A model generated the notes under the pieces. The model was not told where the DNA came from. It worked only from the letters and a program-made list of their open reading frames with translations, and did not search any database. The position numbers and the translations under genes were made by a program. DNA of 64,000 nucleotides from an uncultured Gemmatimonadales bacterium. GTDB lineage: Bacteria > Gemmatimonadota > Gemmatimonadetes > Longimicrobiales > RSA9. The first letter of the stretch is position 1; every line of letters starts with the position of its first letter. The stretch spans positions 96,001-160,000 of the forward strand of contig CAVUKA010000006.1 of NCBI GenBank assembly GCA_963741945.1, given 5' to 3'. Shown here in pieces: positions 25,068-61,458 of the stretch.

Positions 25068-25816
25068 GCGTACCAGACCACCTTGTTGCCGCTGAAGGTC
25101 CCGATGGCGGCGCCCACCACCACGTCGCTCGCCCAGTGCTTGTCGTGGTACATGCGTGAGATCCCGACCAGCGTGGCGCCCCCGTACATCACCCCGCCCA
25201 CCACCAGCTTCCAGCCCGGCCACGCATCTTCCCGGTCCAGCCAGACGGCCGTTTCCGCGGTGACCGCGGACGCAACGGAGAACGCCGTGGTGGTGTGTCC
25301 CGAGGGGAAGGACGAGTAGTCCGTCCCCTTGAAACCGCGGAACAGCTTGAACGAATAGGCGGCGCTGTCCGCCGAGACGTACGGGCGTGCCCGGCCGGCG
25401 AGCATCTTGATGCTCGTCGTGAATACGGTCGCCAGCAGGAACGACTCGGTCCCGTGGAGCCCCAGCGCGGACAGGTACGGCCAGCCGCCGAGGCGCCCTG
25501 CCAGGTACAGCGACGGCCCGATGATTTCCGGCGCCGGCTGCCCCATGAAGCGGAAGAAGGAGGCGGCATCGTGGGCGACGGTGTTGTCCTGGAACACCGG
25601 CTCGCGGATCTCCTGCGCCAGCCGCTGATCCACGGGCAACATGGCTACGGTGCCGAGGGCGAACCCAGCGGCGAGCCAGGCATCGGTACGGGTAAGGAAG
25701 GGCTTCGAGGCGTCCTGCGCGCTGTCCGAGGAGGTCGCAGGGGCCTGCGCCCCCGCCCCGCCCGCGGTGCTCGCCACCAGGACGATGGCTGCGAGAATCC
25801 GTCGCATGGCTGTCAT
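24959..25816 (-). CDS. PAP2 family phosphatase
   Basis: KMLAGRARP, SFPSGH, SRMYHDKHWASDV motifs; signal peptide. Confidence 0.9.
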   Translation of the reverse strand: MTAMRRILAAIVLVASTAGGAGAQAPATSSDSAQDASKPFLTRTDAWLAAGFALGTVAMLPVDQRLAQEIREPVFQDNTVAHDAASFFRFMGQPAPEIIGPSLYLAGRLGGWPYLSALGLHGTESFLLATVFTTSIKMLAGRARPYVSADSAAYSFKLFRGFKGTDYSSFPSGHTTTAFSVASAVTAETAVWLDREDAWPGWKLVVGGVMYGGATLVGISRMYHDKHWASDVVVGAAIGTFSGNKVVWYAYSHPDNRVDRILLSTTVLPSPRGGMTVAWSLPAPF

Positions 25817-25905
25817 CCGGCTGCCACGGCCCGGCCGCGGCGCTGTTCGCGATATCGTGTAGGCCACGAGTGTCGGCCACGACCGCCTTGCAACGCCCGC
25901 GCCAC

Positions 25906-26892
25906 TTACGGCATACGCCCCTGCGCTCCGCCGCCCACGGAAAGGGCGATGCCCAGTGCGACCCCGCCCGAGCCGGCGGGGCCGATGCGGGGGACGACGG
26001 CCGGCTCGCCCCCGCCGTCCGCCACCACCATGCTGCGCCCGATCAGCGTGCCGATGGCCGCACCCACCACCACGTCCGACACGAAATGGGCGTCGTGGTA
26101 GACCCGGGCCACGCCCACGCTCCCGGCCAGTCCGTAGGCCAGCAGGTCCACCCAGAGCGAGCCCGATTCCGCCGCGATCACGGACGCCACGGCGAACGCC
26201 TGGGTCGTGTGGCCGGACGGGAACGACTTGTCCCCGGAGAAGGGCGCGAACGCGTACGGCCCTTCCTCCTGCCTCGGCCTCGCCCGCCCCACGGCCGCTT
26301 TGAGCAGCGGCGTCACCACGCCCCCGGCCACCAGGCTCGCCGCCACCGCCTCCACCGCCGTCCGGCGCAGCCCGGGCCGCCCCAGGACCACCCCCCCACC
26401 GTACAATCCCGCGACCACGGCGAACGACCCCAGCTCCCCGAGCGGCTCCACCGCACCAAGATACGCATCGGCCTCCCGGCTCCGCCGCGCATCCTCGTAC
26501 CGCTCCACCCGGCCATCCGTGGTCCGGACCAGCACCGCAGCCGCCATCCCCGCCGCCGGCACCCACAGCCAGTCCGCTCCCGTCCACCGCGCCGGCGCGG
26601 TGAGCCCGTGCACCACCCGTCCCGCACCGTAGCGCGCGTCCGACAGCAGGAAAGACCCGCCGGCAGGAGACGCTCCGAGCCGCGACGCCGCGTTCACCGC
26701 CACCATCGCCGGCGTCACCGCCTGAGCGTGCGCCGCCGCGGGCGCCGCACGGCCCTCCGCCGGGACCGGCCTGGCCCCCGCCTGCGCCGCCAGCGGACCG
26801 GCGGGAAGCACCAGCGCGGCCGCAACGATCGCGAGCGCCGGTCCCCGGCGGCGCCGCCCTGCCATGGGAACGGGAGCGGAACGGGTGAACAT
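25906..26892 (-). CDS. PAP2 family phosphatase (second paralog; start 26892 or 26865)
   Basis: KAAVGRARP, SFPSGH, ARVYHDAHFVSDV motifs. Confidence 0.88.
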   Translation of the reverse strand: MFTRSAPVPMAGRRRRGPALAIVAAALVLPAGPLAAQAGARPVPAEGRAAPAAAHAQAVTPAMVAVNAASRLGASPAGGSFLLSDARYGAGRVVHGLTAPARWTGADWLWVPAAGMAAAVLVRTTDGRVERYEDARRSREADAYLGAVEPLGELGSFAVVAGLYGGGVVLGRPGLRRTAVEAVAASLVAGGVVTPLLKAAVGRARPRQEEGPYAFAPFSGDKSFPSGHTTQAFAVASVIAAESGSLWVDLLAYGLAGSVGVARVYHDAHFVSDVVVGAAIGTLIGRSMVVADGGGEPAVVPRIGPAGSGGVALGIALSVGGGAQGRMP

Positions 26893-26983
26893 GGCTTGCA
26901 ATCTCCCCCCATCTGGCGAGTTGGCAACCCTCCGCCCCTTCCGGTGGGCAACACGCCCCTTGCCCATGGAGGTGGCGTCGGCT

Positions 26984-27005
26984 AATCGTGTATCTTGTCA
27001 CGAAA
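26984..27005. promoter_or_regulatory. Predicted Rex operator
   Basis: AATCGTG-tatcttgt-CACGAAA, directly upstream of the SD of the PSE transporter. Confidence 0.65.
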
Positions 27006-27020
27006 AGGAGGGTGCCGACG

Positions 27021-28355
27021 ATGGAAATCGCTTCCCGGCCGCCGGACCAGCTGCCCGTCGCGACGGGCGAGCGGTGGTTCACGAGCGAAGACTGGTGGTC
27101 CGTGATCCTCGGGTTGTTCCTGCTGGCCGCCTGCTGGGCGGCCTTTGCGTTGGGGCGGCCGCTGGCGGTGCTGTCCAGGGCGGCGCCGACGCGCTGGCCG
27201 GCGAGCCCGCTGGGCGAGCATTTCGCCCGGAGCTGGCCGGCGTACGTGGCGATGTTCGGCATGCTGGCGGCGCTCACGACGGCGGCGGTGTACGTGATGA
27301 CGGGGAAGGTGCGGAACTACCTGCTCGGGTTCACGGTCCTGTTCGCGGCGTCCACGCTGATCATGATCCTGGGCGCGCAGGAGCAGCTGAAAGCGTGGGG
27401 GCTGGAGACTGCGTTCTGGGCGCTGGTGCTGGGGCTGGCCGTGGGGAACGCCATCCACCTTCCCGTATGGTTCCAGGCGGCGGCGGGGCGAACGGAGTTC
27501 TTCATCAAGACCGGAATCATCCTGCTGGGCGCGCAGCTCTCGTTCAACGTGATCATCTCCGGTGGCGTGTGGGGCTTCCTCGAAGCGCTGCTGATCGTCT
27601 CGGCCGGATTCACCACGGCCTTCTTCATCGCCAAGCGCCTGGGCTACGACAACCGGTTCGCCGCCGTGCTCGGCGCCGGTGGGTCGGTGTGCGGCGTGTC
27701 GGCCGCCATCGCCGTGGGCGGCTCGGTGAAAGCGAACGAGAAGCAGGTGGGCTACGTGATCTCCCTCGTGGTGCTCTACGCCCTCGTGCTGATCTTCCTC
27801 CTGCCGGCCATCTCCCGCGCCATCGGCCTGAGCGAGGTCGTGGCCGGCGCCTGGATCGGCGGCTCCGAGCTCGCCGACGCGGCCGGCCTCGCCTCCGCTG
27901 CCATGATCAGCGAAAAGGCCGTGCAGGCATTCACTCTCGTCAAGCTGAACCGCGATGTCATGATCGGCTTCCTCTGTTTCCTCTTCGCCTACCTGGCCGT
28001 CACCCGGTGGGACGTGAAGGAATCCGGCGCGAAGCCGAGCCCCCGGGTGATCTGGGACCGCTTCCCCAAGTTCGTCCTGGCGTTCCTCGTGACCTCCATC
28101 GTGATCACTGCCCTCGATACCCGCATCGGGCCCGATGTCGCCGCCTACATCGTGGCGCCGCTGCGCACTGTGCGCGGCTGGCTGTTCACCATCGCTTTCC
28201 TCTGCATCGGACTCAACACACGCATCGAGGACGTCCGTGCCATGGGGGCGAAGCCGATCATGGCCTTCACCGCCGTGGTCCTCGTCAACGTCAGCGTCGG
28301 CTTCATCCTCGCCAACCTCTTCTTCGGCGGCATCATCGCAGCGCCGCTGAAGTAG
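27021..28355 (+). CDS. Putative sulfate exporter (PSE/YeiH family) transporter
   Basis: EDWWSV, EFFIKTGIILLGA, GGSVCGVSAAIA, GAWIGGS, WDRFPKFV, GWLFTIAFLCIGL; AGGAGG SD. Confidence 0.85.
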   Translation: MEIASRPPDQLPVATGERWFTSEDWWSVILGLFLLAACWAAFALGRPLAVLSRAAPTRWPASPLGEHFARSWPAYVAMFGMLAALTTAAVYVMTGKVRNYLLGFTVLFAASTLIMILGAQEQLKAWGLETAFWALVLGLAVGNAIHLPVWFQAAAGRTEFFIKTGIILLGAQLSFNVIISGGVWGFLEALLIVSAGFTTAFFIAKRLGYDNRFAAVLGAGGSVCGVSAAIAVGGSVKANEKQVGYVISLVVLYALVLIFLLPAISRAIGLSEVVAGAWIGGSELADAAGLASAAMISEKAVQAFTLVKLNRDVMIGFLCFLFAYLAVTRWDVKESGAKPSPRVIWDRFPKFVLAFLVTSIVITALDTRIGPDVAAYIVAPLRTVRGWLFTIAFLCIGLNTRIEDVRAMGAKPIMAFTAVVLVNVSVGFILANLFFGGIIAAPLK

Positions 28356-28430
28356 CGCGGTCGAGCTCGGAAGGCCGCGCGGTCACTGCCGGATCGTGAA
28401 CGGGGGTTGACGAGCAGCGGGCGCAGCAGT

Positions 28431-28452
28431 AATCGTGACAACTGGCACGATT
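28431..28452. promoter_or_regulatory. Predicted Rex operator (perfect 7-bp arms)
   Basis: AATCGTG-acaactgg-CACGATT, downstream of a TTGACG -35-like hexamer at 28407. Confidence 0.7.
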
Positions 28453-28601
28453 GCCGACGGTCGCCCCTGCCGCCGGCTGAACACGGAAGGTGGTCCTTGG
28501 CGTCGACGCAGGCGGTTCCGGGGGACGGGATCGAGATCGGTAGGCCGGCGTCCGTGGAGGAGGCGGAGCCGGCGGATCGCGGTCGGGCGGAGCGTGCGCT
28601 G

Positions 28602-30047
28602 ATGGAGCGACCGGAGCTGAGCATCCGGACGCGGATCACGGGCGTGTTCGCGCTGCTGTTCGTGCTGTGCACGACGATCACGGTGGCGGCGGTGATGTTC
28701 CTGTCGGCCTTCCAGGCCAAGATCCAGTTCCTGGAGAACGCGAGCAGCTACTCGTTCGAGATCGAGGAGGCGCGGCGCAACGAGAAGAATTTCTTCCTGT
28801 ACGGGACGGGTCTGCCGGAGGCGCTGGCGAGCGCGACATTGGCGCGGACGCACCTGGAGCGGAACGCGGGGCAGATCCGGTCGGTGGTGGGGAGCTCGAA
28901 GTACGGGGAGATGGAGCGGAGCCTGACGCGCTACCAGGAGCTGCTGCGGGAGCTGGTGGACGCGGAATCCGGGGGGTCGGCGGACGGCGCGGGGGCGACA
29001 GCGGGCTCGCAGCGGCGGATCGAGGTGAGTCTGCGGACAGAGGGCGCGCAGCTGCTGAGCGATGCCGAGGAGATGATCGCCGGGGAACGGGCGGCGGTGT
29101 CGTCGATGCTGCGCACGTCCATGCTGGCGGCGTTCGGCTTCCTGGGTCTCATGCTGCTCCTGATGGTGCTGTTCGGCGGGTTTGTGGTGCGGACGGTGGT
29201 GTACCCGCTGGACCGGTTCATGGAGTACATCGGGCGGATCGGCGCGGGGAACTACGAGCCGATCCAGCCGGTGCGTCGGTTCCGGGACGAGTTCTCGTCG
29301 CTGGCGCTGGCGTTCAACCGGATGCTGGGGGAGATCGTGACGCACCAGGAGCAGCTGGTGCAGTCCGGGAAGATGGCGGCGGTGGGGACGCTCACCTCGG
29401 GGATCGCCCACGAGCTGAACAACCCGCTGAACAACATCGGCCTGACCGTGGAAGCGCTGCTGGACGATCTGGACGCATACTCGGAAGACGAGAAGCGCCG
29501 GATGCTGGAGCAGGCGTACACGCAGGTGGAACGGGCCAGCACGACGGTGCGAAACCTCCTGGACTTCACGCGCAAGGACCGCTCGGCGTTCACCACGGTG
29601 TCCATGGCCGGGGTGGTGGACTCGGCGCTCCGGCTGGTGGCGAACGAGGCCATGCTCGCGGGAGTGGAGTGCGAGCGCAGCGTGCCCGCGGATCTCCCGC
29701 CCGTGCGGGGCAACCCCCACGACCTGGAGCAGGTCTTCCTCAATCTCTGCCTGAACGCGATCCAGGCCATGCCGGAAGGCGGGCGGGTGCGGATCACGGG
29801 GGCAAGGGAGGGGGAGGACGGAGTGCGGGTGGACGTGGCAGATACGGGGTCGGGGATCGCGCCGGAGCACCTGGAGGAGATCTTCGATCCGTTCTTCACG
29901 ACGAAGGAGATGGGCGAGGGCACGGGGCTGGGGCTCTCGGTGAGCCACAGCATCATCGAGCAGCACCGGGGGCGGATCACCGTCATGAGCGAGCGTGGAG
30001 CGGGGACGACGTTCTCCATCCACCTGCGCGCGGCGGAAGGGGCGTGA
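28602..30047 (+). CDS. Membrane sensor histidine kinase (2 TM, HAMP, HisKA, HATPase)
   Basis: GIAHELNNPL H-box, NLCLNAIQAM, DTGSGI, IFDPFFTTK, GTGLGL. Confidence 0.92.
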   Translation: MERPELSIRTRITGVFALLFVLCTTITVAAVMFLSAFQAKIQFLENASSYSFEIEEARRNEKNFFLYGTGLPEALASATLARTHLERNAGQIRSVVGSSKYGEMERSLTRYQELLRELVDAESGGSADGAGATAGSQRRIEVSLRTEGAQLLSDAEEMIAGERAAVSSMLRTSMLAAFGFLGLMLLLMVLFGGFVVRTVVYPLDRFMEYIGRIGAGNYEPIQPVRRFRDEFSSLALAFNRMLGEIVTHQEQLVQSGKMAAVGTLTSGIAHELNNPLNNIGLTVEALLDDLDAYSEDEKRRMLEQAYTQVERASTTVRNLLDFTRKDRSAFTTVSMAGVVDSALRLVANEAMLAGVECERSVPADLPPVRGNPHDLEQVFLNLCLNAIQAMPEGGRVRITGAREGEDGVRVDVADTGSGIAPEHLEEIFDPFFTTKEMGEGTGLGLSVSHSIIEQHRGRITVMSERGAGTTFSIHLRAAEGA

Positions 30048-30069: not shown

Positions 30070-30996
30070 ATGAATCATCTGGCGATCTACCTCCCCGTGG
30101 CGGGGAGCGCAGTGAGCATGCCGTTGCTGATCGGGCTGGGCGCCCTGGTCGGGTTCATGTCAGGGCTGTTCGGCGTGGGGGGCGGGTTCCTCATGACGCC
30201 GCTCCTGATCATGGTCGGCATCCCCCCCACCGTGGCAGCGGCATCGGACTCGAACCAGATCGTCGCGGCATCGTCGTCCGGGACCTACGCCCATGCCCGA
30301 GCCGGGTCCGTGGACGTCCCCATGGGGCTGCTGCTGCTGGTGGGCGGCATCGCCGGCGGATCCGTGGGCGTGGTGCTCATCAAGTTCCTGCGCGCGATGG
30401 GCAACGCGGATTTCGTGATCACCGTGACGTATGTGATCATGCTGGGCGGCATCGGGGCGTACATGTTCGTGGAGAGCCTCCGGAGCATGCGCACGGGGGC
30501 CGCCGTTCGGCAGGTGGAGGCGAAGCCATCGCTCTACGCCCGCATGGCGCAGGCGCTCCCGTTCAAGAGCCGGTTCCGCCGCTCGAACGTGGAAATGTCG
30601 GTGCTCATGCCGCTGCTGCTCGGCGTGCTGGTGGGGACGCTCGCTGCCATCATGGGCGTGGGCGGCGGCTTCATCATGGTCCCGATCATGGTCTACCTGC
30701 TGCGCATGCCCATGCACGTGGTGGTGGGGACCAGTCTGTTCCAGATCCTCTTCACCTGCATCAACGTGACCGTGCTCCAGGCCACGCTGAACCACACCGT
30801 GGATTTCGTCCTGGCCCTGTTCCTCCTCATCGGGTCGGTGGTCGGGGCGCAGCTCGGGGCGCTCGTGAGCAAGCGGCTGAAGGCCGACCAGCTCAAGATC
30901 CTCATGGCGGGCATCGTGCTGCTGGTCACCGCCAAGATGCTCCTCGGCCTCGTCCTGCCGCCGGAGTTCCTCGTGGCGTATGCGGGAGGCCACTGA
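30070..30996 (+). CDS. Sulfite exporter TauE/SafE (TSUP) family protein
   Basis: Duplicated GLFGVGGGFLMTP / AIMGVGGGFIMVP motifs, VGTSLFQI. Confidence 0.9.
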   Translation: MNHLAIYLPVAGSAVSMPLLIGLGALVGFMSGLFGVGGGFLMTPLLIMVGIPPTVAAASDSNQIVAASSSGTYAHARAGSVDVPMGLLLLVGGIAGGSVGVVLIKFLRAMGNADFVITVTYVIMLGGIGAYMFVESLRSMRTGAAVRQVEAKPSLYARMAQALPFKSRFRRSNVEMSVLMPLLLGVLVGTLAAIMGVGGGFIMVPIMVYLLRMPMHVVVGTSLFQILFTCINVTVLQATLNHTVDFVLALFLLIGSVVGAQLGALVSKRLKADQLKILMAGIVLLVTAKMLLGLVLPPEFLVAYAGGH

Positions 30997-31844
30997 TGCG
31001 CAGTTCTGCGGTCGCGCTTGCCCTTCTCACCGTGACCATTGCGGGGGCGGTTCCCCTGAGTTCGCAGACCGGGGCCATGACCCTGCAGGACACCGCGCAC
31101 GCCCCGGTGGTGGAGCAGGCGCCGGAGCTGCCGGGCGAGGCGCTGGAAGGCGGAGCGGGTGGAGTCGTGGTGGAGCCCGAGCTTGTGGTGACGGGGATGT
31201 TCTACACGGGCGCCACGGTGCACGTGAGCGCGGTCGTCCCCGCCGGTGCCGACGTCGCCGTGCTCTGCCGTGGTGAGGGGCACCCGCTGACGCTGAAGCG
31301 GAAGGGGAAGGTGCTGGGACTGCTCTGGATGAACGTGGGCGACGTTTCGTTCGAACAGGTCCCGGCCCTGTACCTGCTGGACACGTCCCGCCCGCTGGGG
31401 GAGCTGGCCGCCGACACGGTGCTGGACGCCCTTGGCCTCGGGGTCGCGGCGCTGGCGACGCGCTGCGACGCGGACGCATCGGATCCGGTACTGTTCAGCG
31501 AGCTGGCGCGGCTGAAACAGAAGGAGCGACTGTGGCGAGTGGCGGAGGGGGCAGTGGAGATCCGGTCGGGTGAGGGCGGCGCGGAGCTGGCGGTTGCGGA
31601 CCTGCCCCTGCCGCCGAAGGCCGGCCCCGGGGACTACGAGGTGCTGGTTTACGCGTTCGGATCGGCGCAGCCGGAGCTGATCGGCACCGGCCACGTCCGC
31701 GTGGAGCAGGGGGGCGTGTCCGGCTTCATCACGGAGCTGGCCACGAAGCACGGCCTGCTCTACGGCGTGCTGGCTGCGCTGGTGGCGGTGGTCGTGGGCC
31801 TGCTCACCGGCCTTATCTTCGGGATGGGGTCGAAGGGGCACTGA
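30996..31844 (+). CDS. TIGR02186-like membrane-anchored protein (usual TSUP partner)
   Basis: FYTGATV, RKGKVLGLLWMN, VPALY, GDYEV, C-terminal TM with LLYG; TGATG coupling to TSUP. Confidence 0.75.
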   Translation: MRSSAVALALLTVTIAGAVPLSSQTGAMTLQDTAHAPVVEQAPELPGEALEGGAGGVVVEPELVVTGMFYTGATVHVSAVVPAGADVAVLCRGEGHPLTLKRKGKVLGLLWMNVGDVSFEQVPALYLLDTSRPLGELAADTVLDALGLGVAALATRCDADASDPVLFSELARLKQKERLWRVAEGAVEIRSGEGGAELAVADLPLPPKAGPGDYEVLVYAFGSAQPELIGTGHVRVEQGGVSGFITELATKHGLLYGVLAALVAVVVGLLTGLIFGMGSKGH

Positions 31845-31851: not shown

Positions 31852-34836
31852 ATGATGCTGGAGAGGCTGCGCGCGCTGTTCCGACATGGGGGAGCGGAGT
31901 CCACCGAGCGGATCCGGAAGAAGCTGACCACCTTCCGGGAGCTGGTGGAGAAGAATGACCGCGTGCTGGAGCTCATTGCCGACGCCGGCGAGAAGCTGGG
32001 CGGCGAGTACGTGTTCGACCGCAAGTACCTGGAGGACCTGGTCGGCGAGCTCAAGGGCACGGTTCACGGCGTGGTGGAGGACCTGAACACGCTGACCGAG
32101 AACCGGTACCCGGAGCTGTTCCAGGTCGTGGCTTCGGTGGATGCGGGCGTGTACGCCGCCCTCGAGTGCCGGACTCGCCTGCCGGAGGGGCCGTACATCA
32201 TCCCGCTCCATGAAGCGGGGGTGGAGCAAGCGGAGCTGGTGGGCGAGAAGATGGGGCGCCTGGGCGAGATCGGCAGCCGCCTCGGTTGCCGCATCCCCGA
32301 GGGCTTCGTCGTGACGACCCGGGCGTGCCGCGCCTACCTGGAGCACGCCGGCGTGGTGGAAGCGGCGGAAGCGCTCCGCACCCGGGTGGACGGCGAGCTC
32401 CGGAGAATGGAGGCGGAAGCGCGCGAACTCCAGGCACACGTTCTCGCCACGTCGGTCCCGCGGGAGCTGGCGCGGGCCATCCGCCGCGAGGTGGACCGCC
32501 TCCACACCACCCAGCCCGGCGCCCTGTTCGCGGTGCGCTCAAGCGCGGCGGAGGAGGACGGCACGCTCACGTTCGCCGGGCAATACGAGACCATCCTGGG
32601 CGTGGACGCCGACGACGTGGTGGACGCGTACCAGCAGGTCGTGGCCAGTCTGTTCGCCCCGAGCGTCCTCCGCTATCAGCACAGCCACCGCCTCCCCCCG
32701 GGGTGCGGACTGATGGCCGTGGGCTGTCTGTGCATGGTGCCCGCCCGCGCCAGCGGGGTGGCGTACACGTTGAACCCCGCCCCGGGCTTCGGCCGCGTGC
32801 AGCTCGTCACGTCCACCTGGGGGCTCGGCAAGGCCGTGGTGGAGGGCGAAGCGCCGGTGGACCGCTTCGAGGTGCTGCGGGACGAGGGCTACCCCGTCGT
32901 CGACAGCCGGATCGCCGAGAAGACGTGGAAGTACGTCGCCCGCCCCGGCCGCGGCACCGTTCGCGAGCCCGTCGCCGACGACGAGCGGCAGGTTCCGTCC
33001 ATGTCGCCGGCGCTGGTCTCGCGGCTCGCCGAAGCGGCCTGCCGCATCGAGCGCTACATGAAAGCGGCGCAGGACATCGAGTGGGCGGTGGATGACGATG
33101 ACCGCCTTTTCATCCTCCAGGCACGCCCGCTCAGCATCCCGCCCGCGGCTGGCGACGCGGAGCACGATGTCTCCGACGTGGTCGCGCGCTACCCGGTGCT
33201 GCTGAAGGGGCGAGGCGAGGTGGCGTGCCGCGGCATCGGGATCGGTCGGGTCCACCTCCTGGACGACGACCCGTCCGCCGCCGAGGTCCCCCCCGGTGCG
33301 GTCCTGGTCACGCGCACAGCCTCGCCGCGCCTGGGCGGCTTCCTGGCCGGTACCAGCGCCGTGGTCACCGACCTGGGAAGCGCCACCGGCCACTTCGCCG
33401 CCGTCGCCCGGGATTTCCGCGTCCCCACCATCGTGGCCACCGGCGTGGCCACGCGCGTGCTGCGAAACGGGATGGAAGTGACGGTGGACGCGGAGGAGAA
33501 CGTGGTCTACGAGGGGCGCATCGACGAGTTGCTCCGCCACCAGCTGCTGACGCGCTCTTCCTTCGAGGACACCAGCGAATTCCGCCTGCTGCGGCGTATG
33601 CTGCGGAGCATCGCACCGCTGCGCCTGCGCGACCCGCAGAGCTCTTCCTTCACCGCGTCGCAGTGCCGCACCTATCACGACATCATCCGCTTCGCCCACG
33701 AGAAGGCGATCGCAGCGCTGATCGACATCGGCTGGGTCAAGGCCACGGGCGAGCAGGCGCACCTGCGGCGACTGGACCTGCCGATCCCGCTGGACCTGAT
33801 CCTCATCGATCTGGGGAACGGCTTCGAACCCCGGCTCGGTCAGGCCACGGTGAAGCTCGAGGACATTACCTCCCGGCCGCTCATCCCCGTACTGCAAGCG
33901 CTCACGGCCGAAGGGGTCTGGGACACGGCCCCCGCCGAGATGGACATGGACGGGTTCATGTCCAGCGCCACGCGCTCCATGGCCCTCACCGGCCCCCTCG
34001 TCGGACGGCCGACGCAGAACCTCGCCATCGTGGGCGGCCGGTACATGCACCTCAGCCTTCGGCTCGGCTACCACTTCAACATCGTGGACGCCCATCTCGG
34101 CGACGCGCCGGCGGACAACTACATCTACTTCCGCTTTGCCGGCGGCGTAACGGAGCTGACGCGCCGGTCCCGCCGCGCGTCGCTGCTGAAGCAGATCCTG
34201 GAAGCGAACGGCTTCGTGACCGACGGCCGGGAGGACCTGGTCATCGGACGTGTGAAAGGGCTGGCAGCGGAGCTGATGGAGGAGCGGCTGCGAATGGTGG
34301 GCCGCCTCATCGGCTTCACGCGACAGCTGGATGTGTATCTCAAGAACGATCGCCTCGTGGACCGGTACGTGGAGCAGTTCACGGGCGGCAAACCGATCCG
34401 GGACGCCGTACTCCCGGACAGTGGAACGGAGACGCCAATGAGCAGCAACGCGGATGTCCTGGTCCTGGATGACGAGCCGATGGTGGCCGAGCGGCTCAAG
34501 GATCACCTGGACCGCAAGGGTTATCAGGTGGAAGTGTTCACCGACAGCCAGACGGCCATTGATCGGCTTTCGATCAAGCGCTTCGACGTGGTCATCACCG
34601 ATCTCAAGATGGCGGGGCCTGACGGCCTGGACGTGCTCCGGTTCGTGCGCGACCAGAGCTACGGCACCCAGGTCATCATCATCACCGGCTACGGGTCCAT
34701 GGATGCGGCGAGGAAGGCCGAGTTCACCGGCGCGTACGAGTTCGTCAACAAGCCGTTCAGCATGAAGAGCCTCGAGGACATAACACGGAAAGCGGTGCGC
34801 CGGGCCCAGAAGCTGAACGCCAAGGAGCCCACGTGA
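31852..34836 (+). CDS. PEP-synthase-like protein (ATP-grasp PEP/pyruvate-binding + phospho-His mobile domain) fused to a C-terminal receiver domain
   Basis: VGEK, AVRSSA..ED...FAGQY, GLGKAVVEG, QDIEWAV, ILQARP; GSATGHFAAVARDFRVPT; C-terminal VLDDE..VVITDLKM..ITGY..FVNKPF. Confidence 0.85.
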   Translation: MMLERLRALFRHGGAESTERIRKKLTTFRELVEKNDRVLELIADAGEKLGGEYVFDRKYLEDLVGELKGTVHGVVEDLNTLTENRYPELFQVVASVDAGVYAALECRTRLPEGPYIIPLHEAGVEQAELVGEKMGRLGEIGSRLGCRIPEGFVVTTRACRAYLEHAGVVEAAEALRTRVDGELRRMEAEARELQAHVLATSVPRELARAIRREVDRLHTTQPGALFAVRSSAAEEDGTLTFAGQYETILGVDADDVVDAYQQVVASLFAPSVLRYQHSHRLPPGCGLMAVGCLCMVPARASGVAYTLNPAPGFGRVQLVTSTWGLGKAVVEGEAPVDRFEVLRDEGYPVVDSRIAEKTWKYVARPGRGTVREPVADDERQVPSMSPALVSRLAEAACRIERYMKAAQDIEWAVDDDDRLFILQARPLSIPPAAGDAEHDVSDVVARYPVLLKGRGEVACRGIGIGRVHLLDDDPSAAEVPPGAVLVTRTASPRLGGFLAGTSAVVTDLGSATGHFAAVARDFRVPTIVATGVATRVLRNGMEVTVDAEENVVYEGRIDELLRHQLLTRSSFEDTSEFRLLRRMLRSIAPLRLRDPQSSSFTASQCRTYHDIIRFAHEKAIAALIDIGWVKATGEQAHLRRLDLPIPLDLILIDLGNGFEPRLGQATVKLEDITSRPLIPVLQALTAEGVWDTAPAEMDMDGFMSSATRSMALTGPLVGRPTQNLAIVGGRYMHLSLRLGYHFNIVDAHLGDAPADNYIYFRFAGGVTELTRRSRRASLLKQILEANGFVTDGREDLVIGRVKGLAAELMEERLRMVGRLIGFTRQLDVYLKNDRLVDRYVEQFTGGKPIRDAVLPDSGTETPMSSNADVLVLDDEPMVAERLKDHLDRKGYQVEVFTDSQTAIDRLSIKRFDVVITDLKMAGPDGLDVLRFVRDQSYGTQVIIITGYGSMDAARKAEFTGAYEFVNKPFSMKSLEDITRKAVRRAQKLNAKEPT

Positions 34837-34882
34837 CGGAGCACAGCCCCGGACGTACCGGACCCGTGCGGAGACGGCGGCC

Positions 34883-35257
34883 ATGAAGACGCCGAAGAAG
34901 GTCCTGCTGCTGGACGACGAGCCGGTGGTCTGCGAGCGGCTCAAGCCGGCGCTGGAGAAGCTGGGGTTTTACGTGGAGTCCTACACCGAGAGCCAGCCGG
35001 TGGTGGACCGCGTGCTGGAGGAGCGCTTCGACGTGCTGGTGACGGACCTGAAGATGCAGAAGCCGGATGGGCTGGAGATCATGCGCTTCGTCAAGGAGCA
35101 CTCCCCCGGCACGAAGGTGATCATCATCACCGGGTTCGCCACCGTTGAGACGGCCACGGAAACGCTGAAGGGCGGCGCGGTGGACTTCATCGCGAAGCCG
35201 TTCAAGATCCGAACGCTCTGCGAGCGCATCGTCGAGCTGACCCGGGACGACGTGTGA
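34883..35257 (+). CDS. Single-domain response regulator (REC)
   Basis: LLDDE, VTDLKM, ITGF, FIAKPF. Confidence 0.9.
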   Translation: MKTPKKVLLLDDEPVVCERLKPALEKLGFYVESYTESQPVVDRVLEERFDVLVTDLKMQKPDGLEIMRFVKEHSPGTKVIIITGFATVETATETLKGGAVDFIAKPFKIRTLCERIVELTRDDV

Positions 35258-35261: not shown

Positions 35262-36074
35262 TCAGACCGTGTAGTCGGGCGCCGCCAGGTTCTCCCGGTC
35301 CACCCGCTCCACCCCCGGCACGCCGGAGGCCACCTCGATCACTGCGTCCACAAGCGACGGAGGCCGGAGCCGCCCTCGCACGTACACCACACCGTCCCGC
35401 GCCCGCAGCCTTACCTCCGCCGGGAACGTCCGCTCGTCCGCGGCCAGCGCCGCCTGGACCCGGCTCGCCAGCACCAGGTCCGCCATGGACCGCTGGCTCT
35501 CGACCGTCGGCTCAAAGCGGGGGGAGCGGGACGCCAGGACCACCAGCGCCACGGCATCTTCCATGGCCAGCGTCCGCACACTGATGCACAGGTCGTACAG
35601 GCGCGGATCCAGCCAGTCCACGCCATAGAGGAAGCGCGTCCATTTCTCCCGCTGACGGTCCAGCTTCTTGATCCGCGCCTCCGCCTCGGCCTCGGTCAGA
35701 TCCGACCGCTCCTTCAGGACCCGGTCACGGAAGTCCACCGGCGCGATCAGGCGGACCCGTACCACGTGCGCCACCCCGGGCAGCAGGAGGTGCCCCGCGT
35801 TGCCGTGATACACCACGCCGTCTGCCTGCGCCCGCTCCGTCAGCGCCGCCTGGACGTACGCCAGGTATCGCCGCCGCTCGTGCTGCACCCGGTCCCACAG
35901 CCGGGGTGGCTCGAGCAGCGCCTTCCGGAGCTCCTCCTCCGACGCGCCGAAGCGCGTGGCCTCGTGCACCACCTCCTCCCGGCTGACCACGTCATAGCCG
36001 AGCTCCTTCGCCACCGCTTCGGCGAGAACCCGCCCGCCGCTCCCCGAGCCCCTCGATATCGTTACGATCGCCAT
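35262..36074 (-). CDS. Cytidylate kinase-like family protein with C-terminal BON domain
   Basis: N-terminal TISRGSGSGG P-loop, VVYHG..GH.LL, YGVDW.DP..YDL; BON-like 'RVQAAL...DGVVYVRG...VPGVERV'. Confidence 0.8.
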   Translation of the reverse strand: MAIVTISRGSGSGGRVLAEAVAKELGYDVVSREEVVHEATRFGASEEELRKALLEPPRLWDRVQHERRRYLAYVQAALTERAQADGVVYHGNAGHLLLPGVAHVVRVRLIAPVDFRDRVLKERSDLTEAEAEARIKKLDRQREKWTRFLYGVDWLDPRLYDLCISVRTLAMEDAVALVVLASRSPRFEPTVESQRSMADLVLASRVQAALAADERTFPAEVRLRARDGVVYVRGRLRPPSLVDAVIEVASGVPGVERVDRENLAAPDYTV

Positions 36075-36092
36075 GGATTCGCTTCGGTCCTG

Positions 36093-36767
36093 TCAGGATG
36101 AGAACGCCGTGACATCACGGGCGGGCTCCGCGTCCTCCGACGCCCGCACCAGCGCGCTCAGCCGCTTCATGCGGGTGTGCGCGCCGTAGTAGCCCTGCCC
36201 CGCCCAGACGATGACGACGAGACTCGCCAGCGCGAGCCCGCCGTCGAACAGCGTCCACCAGTTGAGCCCGAAATACCGGAACAGCGAGATCCCCAGCGCC
36301 AGGAACGCCAATCCCGTCCGGATGAACGCCAGGTACGTCCGGCCCCACGCCAGCTCCGTCCGCAGCGCGGAAAGGTGCGTCCGCCGCTGCGCATACCGCG
36401 TCCTCCCCTCCGCCAGGCCATTCCGCGCGGCCGCCAGATCCGTACGTCGGCGCGACAGCCCCGTCCGCTGTCCCGCCAGGTTCGTCCTCGCCCGCGCCAT
36501 GTCCGTGCGATGAACGGACAGGTCCGTTCGCTGACCGGCGAGCCCTGTCCGCTCCCGGCTCAGCTCGGTCCGGAGATTCCCCAGCTCCGTGCTGCGCGTC
36601 GACAGCCGCGTCTGCTCCCGCGTCAGCGCCGTCCGCTCCGACGCCATGTCCGTCCGCTGGCGGGAGTACCCGCTTTCCACCTGCTCCAGGTCCACCGACC
36701 GGGACACCAGACTCCGGATCGCCTCCAGCGTCTCCTGCGTCGGCGCCTCCCCCGCTGTCTTCGTCAT
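36093..36767 (-). CDS. DUF202 (YidH/Vtc1-like) membrane protein with expanded RTxL heptad repeats
   Basis: 17 heptads of xxRTxLx ending in RTYLAFIRTGLAF, followed by two TM helices. Confidence 0.72.
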   Translation of the reverse strand: MTKTAGEAPTQETLEAIRSLVSRSVDLEQVESGYSRQRTDMASERTALTREQTRLSTRSTELGNLRTELSRERTGLAGQRTDLSVHRTDMARARTNLAGQRTGLSRRRTDLAAARNGLAEGRTRYAQRRTHLSALRTELAWGRTYLAFIRTGLAFLALGISLFRYFGLNWWTLFDGGLALASLVVIVWAGQGYYGAHTRMKRLSALVRASEDAEPARDVTAFSS

Positions 36768-36793
36768 GACGCGCCTCTCCTCAGCACCCGGCT

Positions 36794-37612
36794 TCACGAC
36801 TCCGCCAGCAACACCGGAGCATATCCGGGCTCGTAGGCGACCTCCCGATCGCCCGCCACTCGCCGGGCCACCTCCAGGACCTGCTCCCTCCGGGCGTCGT
36901 CCAGGTATGGCCCGGTGACCGTGATCCTTCCCTCCGCCACACGCGCCCCCGCTTCCACCTCCGCCGTCCCCGGATCCGAGACCAGCGCCGCTTCCACATG
37001 GCTCCCCAGCAGCAGCGAGTCCAGCTCCGCCCTGGACTCCGCCGTGGCCTGGCTCCCAGGATCCTCCGCCAGCGCGCAGATCACGTGTGCCGCCGTCTCC
37101 ACGCTCGTCCGACTCAGGTCCAGGCACACATCGTACTGCCCCGGATCCCGGATGTCCTTCCCGTACATCAATCTCGCCCACCGCACACGCGCCTCGTCAT
37201 CCCGCGCAATGTACTCCCGCGCCTCCTCCTCCGAGCACGACAGCCGCGCCATGGTCATCGAAACCCGCAGCGGAAGCGACGCATTGATCCGCACCCGCCG
37301 GAAATGGGCGATGCGTGGCACCAGCAGGTGACCGGAAAAACCGTGGTAGATGAGGTCCGCCTCCCGCGCGTACTCCAGGAGCGCCGTACGCATCAGGACC
37401 ACGTACGGACGCCGTAGCTCGCAGAACTCGTCATAGTCCTGCGTGGCCTTCCCCAGCCGCTCCACGATCCGCTGCGCCAGCTCGCCATGCCGGTTCACCA
37501 CCGCCACCAGGTCCTCGCGCGAGACGCAGCGCCACCCCGTGCACTCCGCCAGACGGCCCACCAGCAGGCGAACGCCCGACATGGTTCCCCGGGAGATCAG
37601 GAGTACGGACAA
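36794..37612 (-). CDS. Cytidylate kinase-like family protein with BON-like C-terminus (second paralog, degenerate P-loop)
   Basis: TTG start after GGAGG; ISRGTMSG, IYHGFSGHLL, YGKDIRDPGQYDV. Confidence 0.75.
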   Translation of the reverse strand: MSVLLISRGTMSGVRLLVGRLAECTGWRCVSREDLVAVVNRHGELAQRIVERLGKATQDYDEFCELRRPYVVLMRTALLEYAREADLIYHGFSGHLLVPRIAHFRRVRINASLPLRVSMTMARLSCSEEEAREYIARDDEARVRWARLMYGKDIRDPGQYDVCLDLSRTSVETAAHVICALAEDPGSQATAESRAELDSLLLGSHVEAALVSDPGTAEVEAGARVAEGRITVTGPYLDDARREQVLEVARRVAGDREVAYEPGYAPVLLAES

Positions 37613-37790: not shown

Positions 37791-38231
37791 TCAGGACGCC
37801 GACGGGGCAGCCGCGAGAAGCCGGTCCACGGCGGCGAGGAGCGCGTCGCGATCGATGGGCTTGGGGAAGAAGCCATCGGGCGGCGGGACGGCGTCGCTCT
37901 TCCGGATGAACTTCTCGTAGCCGTATGGATCGCCGCCGTAACCGGTGACGGCGGTGACGATGACGACGGGGACGCTCCTGAGCGCGGGATCGGTCTTCAC
38001 CGCGCGGTAGAAGCGGGTCCCCGAGGCTCGGGGCATGGAGATGTCGAGGGTGACGAGGTCGGGCGCCTGGGTGCGCATCAGCTCCAGCGCCGCCTCGCCG
38101 TCACCGGCGACTACGGTCTGGTAGCCGCTGTCGCGGAACAGCATGTCGAGGTATTCGACGACGTCCTGCTCATCGTCGACTATGAGGATCTTCCTGGCCG
38201 GTCCCTGCGCGGCCTGGTCCGGTGCGGGCAT
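37791..38231 (-). CDS. Single-domain response regulator (REC)
   Basis: IVDDE, VTLDISMP, IVTA, FFPKP. Confidence 0.88.
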   Translation of the reverse strand: MPAPDQAAQGPARKILIVDDEQDVVEYLDMLFRDSGYQTVVAGDGEAALELMRTQAPDLVTLDISMPRASGTRFYRAVKTDPALRSVPVVIVTAVTGYGGDPYGYEKFIRKSDAVPPPDGFFPKPIDRDALLAAVDRLLAAAPSAS

Positions 38232-38278
38232 GGCTCGCCTCCTTGCTCTGCGGTACGTCGCTGCCACCCGGTCCGCCA

Positions 38279-38809
38279 TCAGGCGCCGGGCGTGGTGCGT
38301 TTCAGAGCCTCCAGGGCGCGTCTGAGCGCGTGGGGCTCCGCCTGTGTCAGCTGGCGGCGAACCTCATCCTGGAGGGTGATGCGATCGTCGTCGCCGGGGC
38401 TCTCCTCGAGGCCGAGGGCGCGCTGGACGCAGCGGACGTAGTCCAGCGGCTTGACGGGCTTCTCGAGGTAGACGCCCGGCCCGGAGATGACGCGGCTCTC
38501 GACGATGTCCTCGAGCTCGGCGCGTCCGAGCTCATCGCGGGCGTGCGCGGTGACGATGAGGACGGGAATGCGGGAGAGCGCGTGGTCCTTGCGGAGCTCG
38601 TAGAGGAGCTTGTGGCCGCTCTTGCCGGGCATGACGAGGTCGAGGGAGATGAAGTCGGGCGGCTGCTGGCGGATGAGGTCGAGGGCCTCGTCGCCGTCGG
38701 AGGCCGTCCGGACGGCGAAGCCTGCGTCCCGGAGGATCTGGGCGAGGTATTCGCGGACGTCCGGCTCGTCGTCCACCACCAGCACGGTCTTGTCACTTGG
38801 CCGCTCCAT
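38279..38809 (-). CDS. Response regulator (REC with short C-terminal helical extension)
   Basis: VVDDE, ISLDLVMP, IVTA, YLEKP. Confidence 0.88.
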   Translation of the reverse strand: MERPSDKTVLVVDDEPDVREYLAQILRDAGFAVRTASDGDEALDLIRQQPPDFISLDLVMPGKSGHKLLYELRKDHALSRIPVLIVTAHARDELGRAELEDIVESRVISGPGVYLEKPVKPLDYVRCVQRALGLEESPGDDDRITLQDEVRRQLTQAEPHALRRALEALKRTTPGA

Positions 38810-38813
38810 GGCG

Positions 38814-39953
38814 TCATCCCTTCGTGTGGTCCTGCCCGTCAGCCCCATCGGCCGGTTCGGCGGCCGCGTGGTCGGGCAGCGAGTCGCGAGGCAGCTCGAT
38901 GCGGAACACCGATCCTTCGCCCTCCTTCGACGTGAAGGAGATGCTGCCGCCGTGCTGGTGCACGATGCGGCGGGTGGTCAGCAGGCCGAGGCCCGTGCCC
39001 CGGTCCGAGCCCTTGGTCGTGAAGAACTTGGAGAACACTTTCCGGCTCAGCTCGTAGTCCATCCCCTTGCCGTTGTCGGCGACCTCGTAGACCAGGACGC
39101 CGTCCTCCTCGGAGACGGAGAGGCGGACGACGAATTCCCGCTGCTTCTCGGCCACCGTGCACGCGTCAATGGCGTTGGACACCAGGTTGGCGAGGCAGGT
39201 GTGGATCCCCGCCTCGTCCAGCAGCGCGGGGGCGATGCCGTCCTGCGGCTCGAAGTCGAGGCGGATGCCGGCGCGCGCGGCGCCGTCGCGGAAGAGGTCG
39301 GCGGCGTTCCTCGCCGGCAGCACGGGGTCGGTGAGTGCCACGACGGCCGGGCGTCCCTTGGCGAAGTCCAGGAACTCCTTGATGAAGGCGGAGATCCGGT
39401 TGACGTTCTGCTCCAGTGTGGTCCAGCCGCGAGCAATGCGCTCGTCGTCGCCGAGCTGGATGCCGGTATTCACGGCGTACATGCCGCCCTCGAGGCCCAT
39501 CAGGATGTTCTTCACGCCGTGGGCGACGCCGGCCACGGTCTCGCCTACGGCGGCGAGGCGCTCGGCTTCGCGCTTCTCACGCTCGAGGCGCTTTACGGCG
39601 GTGATGTCGGTGGACATCTCGATGACGTAGGGGATGTCGCCGTTGGGGCGGACCAGGGGTACCATGTGGACCAGGTAGTCGATCTCCCTGCCGTTCCCCA
39701 CCACGCCCTCCTCCTCCTGCTCCCGGATGGAGCCATCGGCAAACGTGGCGAGGGCGGCGCAGCGGAGGCAGGGCTCATCGCGCCCCTTGTGGACCTGATA
39801 ACAGGGGCGCCCCTGCCAGTCGCCGAACTCCGCCTCGAACGCCAGGTTCGCGTCCACGATCCCGTAGTTGCGACCGATGACGCTGATGGCCACCGGCACT
39901 TCGTCGTAGAGGTGGGCGTGGAGCCAGTCGCGGATCTCCGTGGTGTCCATCAT
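38814..39953 (-). CDS. Cytoplasmic PAS-domain histidine kinase
   Basis: PAS with C-x10-C-x2-C; VAHGVKNIL H-box, NLVSNAIDA, DNGKGM, FFTTK, GTGLGL. Confidence 0.9.
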   Translation of the reverse strand: MMDTTEIRDWLHAHLYDEVPVAISVIGRNYGIVDANLAFEAEFGDWQGRPCYQVHKGRDEPCLRCAALATFADGSIREQEEEGVVGNGREIDYLVHMVPLVRPNGDIPYVIEMSTDITAVKRLEREKREAERLAAVGETVAGVAHGVKNILMGLEGGMYAVNTGIQLGDDERIARGWTTLEQNVNRISAFIKEFLDFAKGRPAVVALTDPVLPARNAADLFRDGAARAGIRLDFEPQDGIAPALLDEAGIHTCLANLVSNAIDACTVAEKQREFVVRLSVSEEDGVLVYEVADNGKGMDYELSRKVFSKFFTTKGSDRGTGLGLLTTRRIVHQHGGSISFTSKEGEGSVFRIELPRDSLPDHAAAEPADGADGQDHTKG

Positions 39954-42007
39954 GGCAGCGACCCTCCTCCCCCGCTGGCCGGCGCGCGCGCGGCGGCCGT
40001 TCCCGCCACGGCGCGGGCGGCTTCCCCTGCCTGGCGGGCTGGCGCAAGCTCCTTCAGGCGGGCTCGACGATCCGCATCGTGGCACGTCTCACAGCGGGCC
40101 AGGTGCTCCGGGTGCTCGGCGGGAGCGTTCCGGACCTCGTCCTCGTGGCACTTCACGCACAGGCCGTGCATCGCGTCCATGTAGCCGGGTGCCGGGCGCC
40201 AGCGGGCATCCGCGGCGGGGATGATCCGGCTCTCGCCGGCGTCGCCGCCGTGGCATTCGCTGCACGCCGTGGCGGTGGCGTAGGTCTTGGTGGCCACGCC
40301 GGGGACGTGGCACTGGGCGCAGCCGTCGTCGCCCTGGAGCGCGGCCACGTGGGCCGCGTGGTCGAAGACCCCGGTGCTGTCGAACATGTCCCGGTGGCAG
40401 GCGGCGCAGCGGCTGGCGCGTTCCAGCGGGAGGTTGAGGTGGTGGCACGTGCCGCACGCCTGCTCGCCGCCGGTACGCTCGATGTGGGCGTCGTGGTCGA
40501 ACAGCACGGCGTTGCCGTCCCGGTCCCCATCCACGAGCAGGAGCATCGCTTCACGGGCGCGGGCGCTCCCCCCCGGGCCCTCCCCTGCGGATGCGCCCTC
40601 GACCGCGGCCACGGCCGACACGGGGGAGGAAGCCTCCTCGCCCACCCCGACCAGCGCCAGCGCCCTCCGGGCGCCGGGCCGCTCCAGGACCACGCCGGCC
40701 ACGGCGCGGGCATCCGTCACGGGGGCGGGCTTCGCCCGGGGCCCGGCCAGCGGCAGGAAGAGGAGCGCCACGGCGAACGCCACCACCGCGGCGGCGCTGT
40801 TCCTCCGGGGGCCGCCCAGGCGCGCCGGGAGCAGCCCGTGGACGGTGCCCGGGTCGAAGCTCCGGGGCCGTGCCCGGACGGTGTCGGTGGACACGTCGTC
40901 GTATACGTGCAGGTGCTCGGCGAAGAAGATGAAGACCAGCATGGCGCCGGCCACGATCCCAGCGCTGACCGCGAACTCCTCCCAGCTGGGGAAGTACGAC
41001 ATCCCCGCCGGCCGGGCGAACGCCAGCACGGAGACGTCGAGGCGGTAGAGGATCATCCCGGCCACGGTCATGGTGGCGGCAATGCCCACGCCCCGGATCG
41101 TGCGGCGGACCGCGGGGATGGCCATGAGCACCACGGGCACGCCCGCGCTCAGCGCCAGCTCGGCGACGAACAGCGCGCCGTGCCAGGAGGGGCGGAGCGC
41201 GCTCGTGAGGATGCCCCGGGCAGCCAGGTCCCCCAGGCGCAGGGCGAGGTAGAGGGAGAGCACCACGGCGGCGGCGGCGCCCAGCCCGGACATCTGGCGC
41301 GGGTGCAGCTCGTGGCCGAGAAAGCGTCGTGCGAACAGGGACTCCACCACCACCATGGAAAGCCCGAGGGCGACGGCGGAGACGAAGAAGAGCACGTAGA
41401 TGATCGGCGAGTACCAGAGCGGGTGCAGCCGGTAGGGCATGATCAGGAAGAGGGATCCCAACGACGACTGGTGCAGCGTGGACAGCATGATCCCGAGAAT
41501 GACCAGCGGGATCGTGGCCTTCCGGAGCACTCTCAGGGCGGCGCGGAACCCGCGCCAGCGGAAGAGCGGGTGCTCGAGGATCGCGGGGGCGAACTCGAGC
41601 CCGAGCACGGTGAGGTAGAGCATGACGCACATGGCCACTTCGAACAGCACGGAATGGTGCTGCCAGTGCACGAGCGGGTGCCAGATGCGCCACGGTAGGC
41701 CGAGGTCGTAGAGCAGCCCCACCGCCACGGCCACGTAGCCGAGGAACGCCGTAAGCACGGCGGGCCGGGCGAACGCGTGGTAGCGCTCAAGGTGGAAGAT
41801 GTAGACGGTGGCCGCCATGACGAAGCCGCCGGCGGCCAGCGCCACGCCGGACATGACGTCGAAGCCGATCCAGAGCCCCCACGGGGTGCCGTCGGAGAGA
41901 TGGGTCACGGCGCCGAGGCCGCGGGTGTAGCGCACCACGCTCACGGCCACGAGGACCCCCACGAGCGTCCACAGGACCAGCTTCAGCCGCGCCAGCCGCT
42001 CACGCAT
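39950..42007 (-). CDS. NrfD/HmcC (HybB-like) membrane subunit fused to a six-heme cytochrome c3-type domain
   Basis: PWGLWIGFDV..GVALAAGGF, DLGLPWR, SVLFEVAMC, LSTLHQSSLG, LHPLW, YFPSW.E; then FDHDAH/FDHAAH and six CxxCH. Confidence 0.88.
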   Translation of the reverse strand: MRERLARLKLVLWTLVGVLVAVSVVRYTRGLGAVTHLSDGTPWGLWIGFDVMSGVALAAGGFVMAATVYIFHLERYHAFARPAVLTAFLGYVAVAVGLLYDLGLPWRIWHPLVHWQHHSVLFEVAMCVMLYLTVLGLEFAPAILEHPLFRWRGFRAALRVLRKATIPLVILGIMLSTLHQSSLGSLFLIMPYRLHPLWYSPIIYVLFFVSAVALGLSMVVVESLFARRFLGHELHPRQMSGLGAAAAVVLSLYLALRLGDLAARGILTSALRPSWHGALFVAELALSAGVPVVLMAIPAVRRTIRGVGIAATMTVAGMILYRLDVSVLAFARPAGMSYFPSWEEFAVSAGIVAGAMLVFIFFAEHLHVYDDVSTDTVRARPRSFDPGTVHGLLPARLGGPRRNSAAAVVAFAVALLFLPLAGPRAKPAPVTDARAVAGVVLERPGARRALALVGVGEEASSPVSAVAAVEGASAGEGPGGSARAREAMLLLVDGDRDGNAVLFDHDAHIERTGGEQACGTCHHLNLPLERASRCAACHRDMFDSTGVFDHAAHVAALQGDDGCAQCHVPGVATKTYATATACSECHGGDAGESRIIPAADARWRPAPGYMDAMHGLCVKCHEDEVRNAPAEHPEHLARCETCHDADRRARLKELAPARQAGEAARAVAGTAAARAPASGGGGSLP

Positions 42008-43495: not shown

Positions 43496-43498
43496 GGG

Positions 43499-50435: not shown

Positions 50436-50564
50436 CCCCGGCCCTGCCATCGCCAGCGACCGGGCCGCATCCGGACTTCCTCGCTCGCCACCCATACCCC
50501 CCGCATCCGCCTGCCGTTGGGCGACTTCTCTTTCCTCGGTCGTCAACCCCTGGCAAGGACCCCC

Positions 50565-50594
50565 TTGACAACCCCGATCCGGACCCCGTATAGA
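50565..50594 (+). promoter_or_regulatory. Sigma-70-type promoter of the apr-qmo-sat-dsr operon
   Basis: TTGACA-N18-TATAGA. Confidence 0.6.
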
Positions 50595-50597
50595 TCG

Positions 50598-61450: not shown

Positions 61451-61458
61451 GGAATGGC

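Follow-up and report, generated by a model that had tools for sequence, protein, structure and literature searches.

Recurrent fusion of a swivel-domain phosphohistidine enzyme to one of two receivers in operons linked to dsrA

Small-molecule dikinases built as an ATP-grasp domain, a swivel domain with a histidine and a separate substrate domain have been described in two reports (PMC12167813, PMC4844700). We compared with these a gene of an uncultured Gemmatimonadales bacterium, located in a stretch of 64,000 nucleotides (nt) of contig CAVUKA010000006.1 (assembly GCA_963741945.1, positions 96,001 to 160,000), which is referred to here as the window and whose numbering is used throughout. The gene, at 31852-34836 (+), forms an uninterrupted frame of 994 codons for one protein of 994 amino acids (aa), in which a swivel-domain enzyme resembling phosphoenolpyruvate (PEP) synthase is joined to a response-regulator receiver, REC1. 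A second, stand-alone receiver of 124 aa and of the ancestral type, REC2, lies downstream at 34883-35257 (+). New here are the recurrence of the fusion, which is specific to REC1, and a counted link to dsrA. In the explanation that we favour, and to which we give about half of our confidence, the enzyme would be a dikinase with a substrate probably carried by the neighbouring permease, gated by a dedicated receiver that is fed by the operon's intact kinase. No description of the enzyme family or of the receiver fusion was found in the literature search, from which subscription papers were mostly absent.

PpsA (TIGR01418, PRK06464; PDB 9dae, 2ols, 8a8e) and pyruvate, phosphate dikinase (PPDK) share with the window enzyme the order of an ATP-grasp domain and a central swivel histidine, together with the catalytic histidine itself and the threonine two residues before it. 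Unlike them, however, the window enzyme lacks the pyruvate-binding barrel, scores far under the family cut-offs (278 against 739.75 for TIGR01418, the match covering only profile positions 2-466 of 784; 294 against 598 for PRK06464) and adds a 112-aa helical N-terminal domain, a 290-aa C-terminal domain and the fused receiver. The closest solved structures are PEP synthases, aligned over residues 112-563 only. No Pfam match to PF02896, the PEP/pyruvate-binding TIM barrel, was found in the 994-aa protein. Within the genome this profile hit only a different contig, in two frames whose lengths of 931 and 595 aa are those of PPDK and of enzyme I of the phosphotransferase system (PTS), respectively. 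Identity as a PEP synthase was ruled out by the absence of the barrel, the sub-cut-off scores, a non-barrel structural model and these separate barrel genes. The label 'pyruvate, water dikinase' carried by homologs in the databases is a mislabelling of the enzyme family, and metabolic models in which the family stands for a gluconeogenic PEP synthase are probably in error.

With rifampin phosphotransferase (RPH), PigC/RedH and HpeHI/CreHI the window enzyme has in common an ATP-grasp domain, a swivel histidine and a separate substrate domain that is not a barrel. All four of the RPH residues K22, R117, T136 and E297 are matched, by K133, R229, T247 and E410; the first three are needed for rifampin phosphorylation and E297 is a Mg contact, according to PMC4844700. 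However, the histidine domain of RPH, PigC and HpeHI is C-terminal, while that of the window enzyme is central (480-549) and stands ahead of the C-terminal domain. The NF041857 score was 180 against a cut-off of 999, RPH gave no sequence match to the C-terminal domain, its likeness ending with the ATP-grasp and swivel parts, and RPH was not among the 50 VIA-align rows listed for that domain. The RIF-binding-domain fold was likewise absent from the VIA-align and Foldseek rows listed, although absence from such a listing does not speak against that fold. As judged from sequence, the enzyme would work like a swivel-domain small-molecule dikinase yet fits neither PpsA/PPDK, by its lack of the barrel, nor RPH, by its domain order.

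The N-terminal helical domain (aa 1-112, 31852-32187) is family-specific, forms long helices in the model, contains no conserved histidine and has no real Pfam match. It is followed on the same (+) strand by the ATP-grasp domain (aa 113-432, 32188-33147), assigned from PPDK_N (PF01326, aa 128-429, E 5e-71) and from the residues aligned to RPH, and by the swivel phosphohistidine domain (33184-33531; PEP-utilizers, PF00391, aa 480-549, E 1e-14), in which His514 (codon 33391-33393) sits inside SATGHFA and Thr512 occupies the regulatory-threonine position. The C-terminal domain (aa 561-846, 33532-34389) and a linker (34390-34437) then lead to REC1 (34438-34836; Response_reg, aa 869-976, E 8e-24), whose phospho-site comprises D873, D874, the phospho-acceptor D917 (34600-34602), T945 and K967. 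The reading frame and the Pfam matches confirm what had been proposed from the letters alone in the original prediction, namely a single frame with an ATP-grasp domain, a swivel histidine and an intact receiver, with a second receiver after it; the helical N-terminus also proposed there is borne out by the model. His514 was invariant in 120 of the 120 close homologs listed and in 87 of 87 distant homologs, while T512 was kept in 118 of the same 120 and in 43 of the 87. The only conserved histidines of the enzyme are those at positions 514, 609, 616 and 741, and no HisKA or Hpt match was found anywhere in the 994-aa protein, whose N-terminal helices lack a conserved histidine; the protein thus lacks the histidine-bearing helical bundle (DHp or HPt) that serves as donor in hybrid kinases and phosphorelays.

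The C-terminal domain has no prior description, and aa 560-850 gave no Pfam match even at E 0.1. This region of about 290 aa was modelled as an alpha/beta sheet domain (pLDDT, the predicted local confidence, 87.7) whose order of strands and helices differs from that of a barrel, so that together with the missing PF02896 match the earlier suggestion that it is not the PpsA barrel holds. Its polar residues were near-invariant among the 87 distant homologs (D610, H741, R775 and D827 in all 87, H609 and H616 in 86 each), and the conserved enzyme residues were retained to the same degree in 24 fused, 28 split and 28 single-receiver loci, H609 in one single-receiver locus being the sole exception. 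The family is large, with 1128 clusters at 50% identity matching the domain. Since the domain occupies the place of the second substrate domain in PEP synthase and PPDK, it is likely, by analogy of architecture, to be the acceptor site, and its conserved histidines, aspartates and arginine resemble the lining of an enzyme pocket.

Codon 863 of the frame is the internal ATG at 34438, which is preceded by GGAG at 34428-34431, six bases 5' of the ATG, within the unconserved linker; residues 849-863 have a pLDDT below 50 in the full-length model and are predicted to be disordered. A 591-nt contig of sequencing run X1 spans 34185-34775 with 0 differences and 0 gaps, and no stop appears at the junction (34390-34437) where the original prediction had asked for a read check; run X1 may be the source sample, and this check is therefore not an independent one. 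A sequencing artefact as the source of the fusion was ruled out by the X1 contig and by the occurrence of the same fusion in homologs.

The same fusion was found in 20 of the 120 closest proteins listed, the window's included (19 of 119 others), while a receiver was carried by none of the 120 best matches of the family profile, the wider family of about 850 aa being unfused. Cultured carriers of the unfused module include Desulfosarcina cetonica, Thermodesulforhabdus norvegica and Halodesulfovibrio aestuarii. Loci were collected in a metagenome set (74 in which a receiver adjoins the enzyme, 46 of them left after reduction at 90% identity; the query was the enzyme plus receiver, which favours loci with receivers) and a genome set (64 of 80 loci, reduced to 55), and 94 distinct loci with a complete receiver entered the receiver tree. 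The enzyme and REC1 were fused at 25 of 62 junctions and split at the other 37, which supplies the survey of fused and split homologs proposed earlier, and 31 of the 62 junctions were in frame where one third would be expected. By contrast, the control junctions were never fused: REC1>REC2 in 0/62 (10 in frame), TIGR02186>enzyme in 0/46, TauE>TIGR02186 in 0/46 and kinase>TauE in 0/41, or 0/195 for the four controls together; single receivers were fused in 0/32, only 4 of them in frame. Counting in-frame junctions alone, 25/31 were fused for enzyme>REC1 against 0/10 for REC1>REC2 and 0/4 for single receivers. On the protein tree the fused state needs 9 changes, at least 6 of them forced, and on the locus tree 12, at least 9 forced by starred branches; one fused locus (L132), for which no start was called, was left out of the linker and locus-tree counts, which thus hold 24 fused loci rather than 25. 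Although mixed, the evidence leans towards the fusion being more than an accident.

In the fused loci a start codon and ribosome site were kept at the receiver in 8/8 of the metagenome set and 18/18 of the genome set, compared with 99/489 (20%) for other internal starts. Linkers were 39-90 nt long and unconserved, and split forms were found in all three frames, often overlapping. With the receiver's start retained, the linkers variable and the split forms in every frame, the fusion arises, on this pattern of sequences, where the stop codon of a variable tail is repeatedly lost, and REC1 is probably still produced in free form as well; the earlier proposals of a lost stop and of a separately made receiver are thus supported.

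The 62 REC1 sequences form one clade (support 96), to which the single receivers are less close than they are to REC2. A signature in helices 4 and 5 (E95, A119 and a basic tail) is particular to REC1, and the full phospho-site (DD, D, T/S, K) was present in all 62, fused (25/25) and split (37/37). Only a REC2-type receiver was present in 32 of the 94 distinct loci, and REC1 has been lost in several lineages while the conserved core of the enzyme stayed unchanged. In this way the natural fusion names which of the two receivers partners the enzyme.

The fusion is part of a module in the order kinase, TauE, TIGR02186, enzyme and receiver(s), often with a cytidylate-kinase-like gene, that recurs in Gemmatimonadota, Acidobacteriota, Myxococcota, NC10, Elusimicrobiota, Planctomycetota, Thermodesulfobacteriota and others. 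In the window the operon holds a membrane sensor histidine kinase (28407-30047, +; HAMP, HisKA and HATPase_c, H-box intact), whose true start may lie downstream of 28407, a TauE/SafE (TSUP) permease (30070-30996, +; PF01925, E 1e-49) and a TIGR02186/Alph_Pro_TM partner protein (30993-31844, +; PF09608, E 2e-40, TIGR02186 being under cut-off). Where there was room, TauE was upstream in 64/64 loci and the kinase was matched in 48/64, with the H-box intact in 48/48. No DNA-binding output domain was found by Pfam among the module proteins.

The link to dissimilatory sulfur metabolism was counted by way of dsrA, which was present in 37 of the 41 genomes of carriers examined, compared with 7 of 301 in a sample of the window's phylum; the carriers, hand-picked from the 80 genome loci, are related to one another, and the comparison carries no test statistic. 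In this sample the family is thus almost restricted to genomes that encode dissimilatory sulfite reductase. In the window the module adjoins an Hmc/Tmc-like cluster and a sulfate-respiration island. Two gene types of the module also occur in the Desulfovibrio vulgaris cluster DVU0145-DVU0150, which includes a predicted TSUP transporter, DVU0149 (PMC4641369), and a response regulator, DVU0145, and is up-regulated in syntrophy (PMC4265775). Single-domain-receiver two-component systems of the CheY/Spo0F/CpdR type are also alike in having a membrane HisKA kinase, two intact receivers of the stand-alone type and no DNA-binding output; unlike them, the present system has one receiver paralog that has been joined to a phosphohistidine enzyme time and again. 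DVU0152, a neighbour of the D. vulgaris cluster, is presumably a PEP-synthase-related protein; no paper was found under that tag.

In the explanation that we favour, ATP and water would yield phosphorylated His514, AMP and Pi, as expected from the family, and His514 would in turn phosphorylate a small ligand held by the C-terminal domain, as the architecture suggests. The ligand might be the solute of the neighbouring TauE permease, which is our guess, and might be trapped by phosphorylation, as is proposed for HpeHI in PMC12167813. The operon kinase would phosphorylate REC1, which would then bind and gate the enzyme. That REC1 acts on the enzyme is suggested by the repetition of the fusion, and the receiver is likely to switch the enzyme on or off rather than to accept its phosphate. 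A role of REC1 as phosphate acceptor is unlikely, because loci with a single receiver keep the same conserved residues and REC1 has been lost several times. One of the two alternatives in the original prediction, a dikinase with an unknown substrate and under the control of the upstream kinase, is thus supported as a proposal. Such a signal-gated dikinase, if real, may through its substrate reveal a new step of sulfur-compound uptake.

Several observations weigh against this explanation. The VIA-align fold search with the C-terminal domain gave no convincing relative, the top match being coproporphyrinogen oxidase (Z 6.4, rmsd, the root-mean-square deviation, 4.2, 123 residues aligned), with bilin-reductase-like proteins and MotA next (Z 6.1-4.7, within the range that the tool calls common). 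Foldseek gave nothing at E 0.001 for this domain, so that structural relatives offer no clue to a ligand. The link to dsrA is one-way: in the phylum sample the domain was matched in only 2 of 301 genomes, one of which (G018) gave none for dsrA, and the domain went unmatched in 6 of the 7 genomes that carry dsrA. Fusion exceeds chance only modestly, and the sets disagree. Among the metagenome loci the frame of the enzyme reached the receiver start in 8/15, 8/15 and 7/16 loci for the three frames, a near-equality that fits neutrality, whereas in the genome set frame 0 was favoured (18/22 versus 5/9 and 9/24); pooled, 24/30 in-frame REC1 linkers were open against about 17 expected from shuffles, these sequences being related. 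At three of the four control junctions a membrane protein takes part whose topology bars fusion, and only 4/32 single receivers were in frame. At helix-1 positions 22-23, which, by analogy with EnvZ/OmpR specificity work, are probable kinase-contact positions, REC1 has D/E-H/F/Y while REC2 and the single receivers have mostly P-A, and hence the operon kinase may not serve both receivers. Finally, a differential-conservation search for a REC1-linked enzyme surface in four lineages that lost REC1 found no clear patch, a fifth such lineage having no usable sequence.

Two further search outcomes are recorded here: ChpT rows in Foldseek (E 0.03, TM 0.11-0.15) were dismissed as noise, and among the matches listed from the ESM Atlas there were only unnamed or PEP-utilizing clusters of Thermodesulfobacteriota.

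Among the alternatives, the enzyme could be a regulatory protein kinase whose phosphohistidine or C-terminal domain phosphorylates the permease, the partner protein or the neighbouring cytidylate-kinase-like protein. It would thereby regulate the transport of anions and form no metabolite as product; we regard this role as unlikely. PTS enzyme I transfers phosphate to a protein by way of a swivel histidine, and the constant linkage to TauE and TIGR02186 would suit such a role. It would also suit the minority of distant family members that have lost ATP-grasp residues (K133 kept in 68/87) and retain His514 and the residues of the C-terminal domain, as a multi-subunit phospho-carrier might. Set against this, the conserved His/Asp/Arg set has the look of an enzyme pocket, and the characterised three-domain relatives in the reports consulted (PMC12167813, PMC4844700) act on small molecules.

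It is rather improbable that His514 instead gives the ATP beta-phosphate to Asp917 of REC1 in a non-canonical relay, with the C-terminal domain docking or helping and REC2 serving the classical kinase. This reading is kept in play by the REC1-only fusions and by the difference in helix 1, with its probable contact role, and it is consistent with the complete phospho-site of all 62 REC1 and with the lack of DNA-binding output in the module. However, an intact kinase lies within the operon, REC1 and REC2 share D11, D12, E13, V16 and R19 in every sequence, 32 of the 94 loci have only a REC2-type receiver, losses of REC1 leave the enzyme core unchanged, and the 120 best profile matches of the wider family carry no receiver. 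The literature search turned up no report of such a relay, and we know of no precedent for transfer from a swivel histidine to a receiver. An ATP-to-His-to-Asp relay without a classical kinase as the main function, the other alternative of the original prediction, is accordingly not supported, given the intact kinase (H-box 48/48), the mostly unfused family (0/120) and the loss of REC1 with enzyme residues kept. It is similarly doubtful that the swivel histidine is a second, kinase-independent phosphodonor for REC1, through which ATP beta-phosphate would enter two-component signalling in Dsr-type sulfur respirers. In that case the pairing would be signalled by the restriction of repeated fusion to REC1 and by its changed helix-1 face, and the C-terminal domain would gate or relay the transfer, a combination we likewise hold to be improbable. 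The fusion is in itself a single-chain construct for testing the direction of phosphate flow, and flow from histidine to aspartate, if true, would be a new entry route into two-component signalling.

A tolerated accident also seems improbable to us; in it the enzyme and REC1 would lie side by side but act on different targets, stops having been lost in a GC-rich variable tail. The ribosome site and start kept in every fused locus scored, the short, unconserved linkers that are disordered in the model, the equal reach of all frames in the metagenome set and the roughly 17 of 30 linkers that shuffles predict to be open by chance would all fit it; against it stand the in-frame fusions (25/31 for enzyme>REC1, none for REC1>REC2 or single receivers) and the excess of in-frame REC1 junctions. 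An ordinary pyruvate, water dikinase, which the database names and the nearness of the N-terminal two-thirds to PEP synthases would suggest, is extremely improbable given the missing barrel, the low TIGR01418 score and the two barrel genes elsewhere in the genome.

Upstream of the kinase lies a gene for a YeiH-family putative sulfate exporter (26988-28355, +), which is not a constant part of the module. The intergenic stretches of the operon contained no sigma-70 promoter-like or terminator-like site; one terminator-like site was found, inside the YeiH gene. Just upstream of the latter are two PAP2-type phosphatase-like frames (24959-26967, -), one matched by PF01569 (25906-26967) and the other, near 25189-25880, having a similar motif by eye.

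Downstream of REC2, at 35262-37582 (-), two cytidylate-kinase-like proteins, one with BON (35262-36074, -; a frequent neighbour of the module), flank a DUF202-like gene that includes a repetitive coiled stretch. The P-loop-like motif of both shows no lysine, and such genes accompany the module in many genomes. No gene for a PDRP-type regulator (PF03618) was found in this 96.7% complete genome, and one idea would be that the cytidylate-kinase-like proteins act at Thr512. In many loci (L038, L043-L046, L057, L060-L062, L113, L123, L159 and others) a second, more distant paralog of the enzyme is encoded no more than a few kb away; this proximity, taken with the loss of ATP-grasp residues where His514 and the C-terminal domain residues are kept, suggests hetero-oligomers. 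A second signalling set at 37791-39953 (-) comprises a PAS histidine kinase and two stand-alone receivers (37791-38848) and is a possible alternative donor for REC1; a profile comparison of the enzyme family with the PAS kinase (38814-39953) gave nothing.

The Hmc/Tmc-like cluster (39950-44887, -) encodes a DsrK/TmcB-like Fe-S protein, a TmcC/HmcE-like anchor, an HmcB-like protein and an HmcC/NrfD protein of 687 aa fused to a multiheme cytochrome c domain, all under NCBIfam cut-offs. It is followed by an Fe-S/CCG-domain frame and a nitrate-reductase-gamma-like membrane protein (46911-49435, -) beside rex. The sulfate-respiration island (49743-63077, +) holds rex, aprB, aprA, two HdrA-like genes, qmoC, sat, an OsmC-like gene, dsrC, a gene for an RsbRD_N protein, which we take to be DsrT-like, and dsrM. 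The dsrA gene, about 3 kb past the end of the window, and a second dsrA-like frame are both found just beyond it, within G000:C6:163245-165553.

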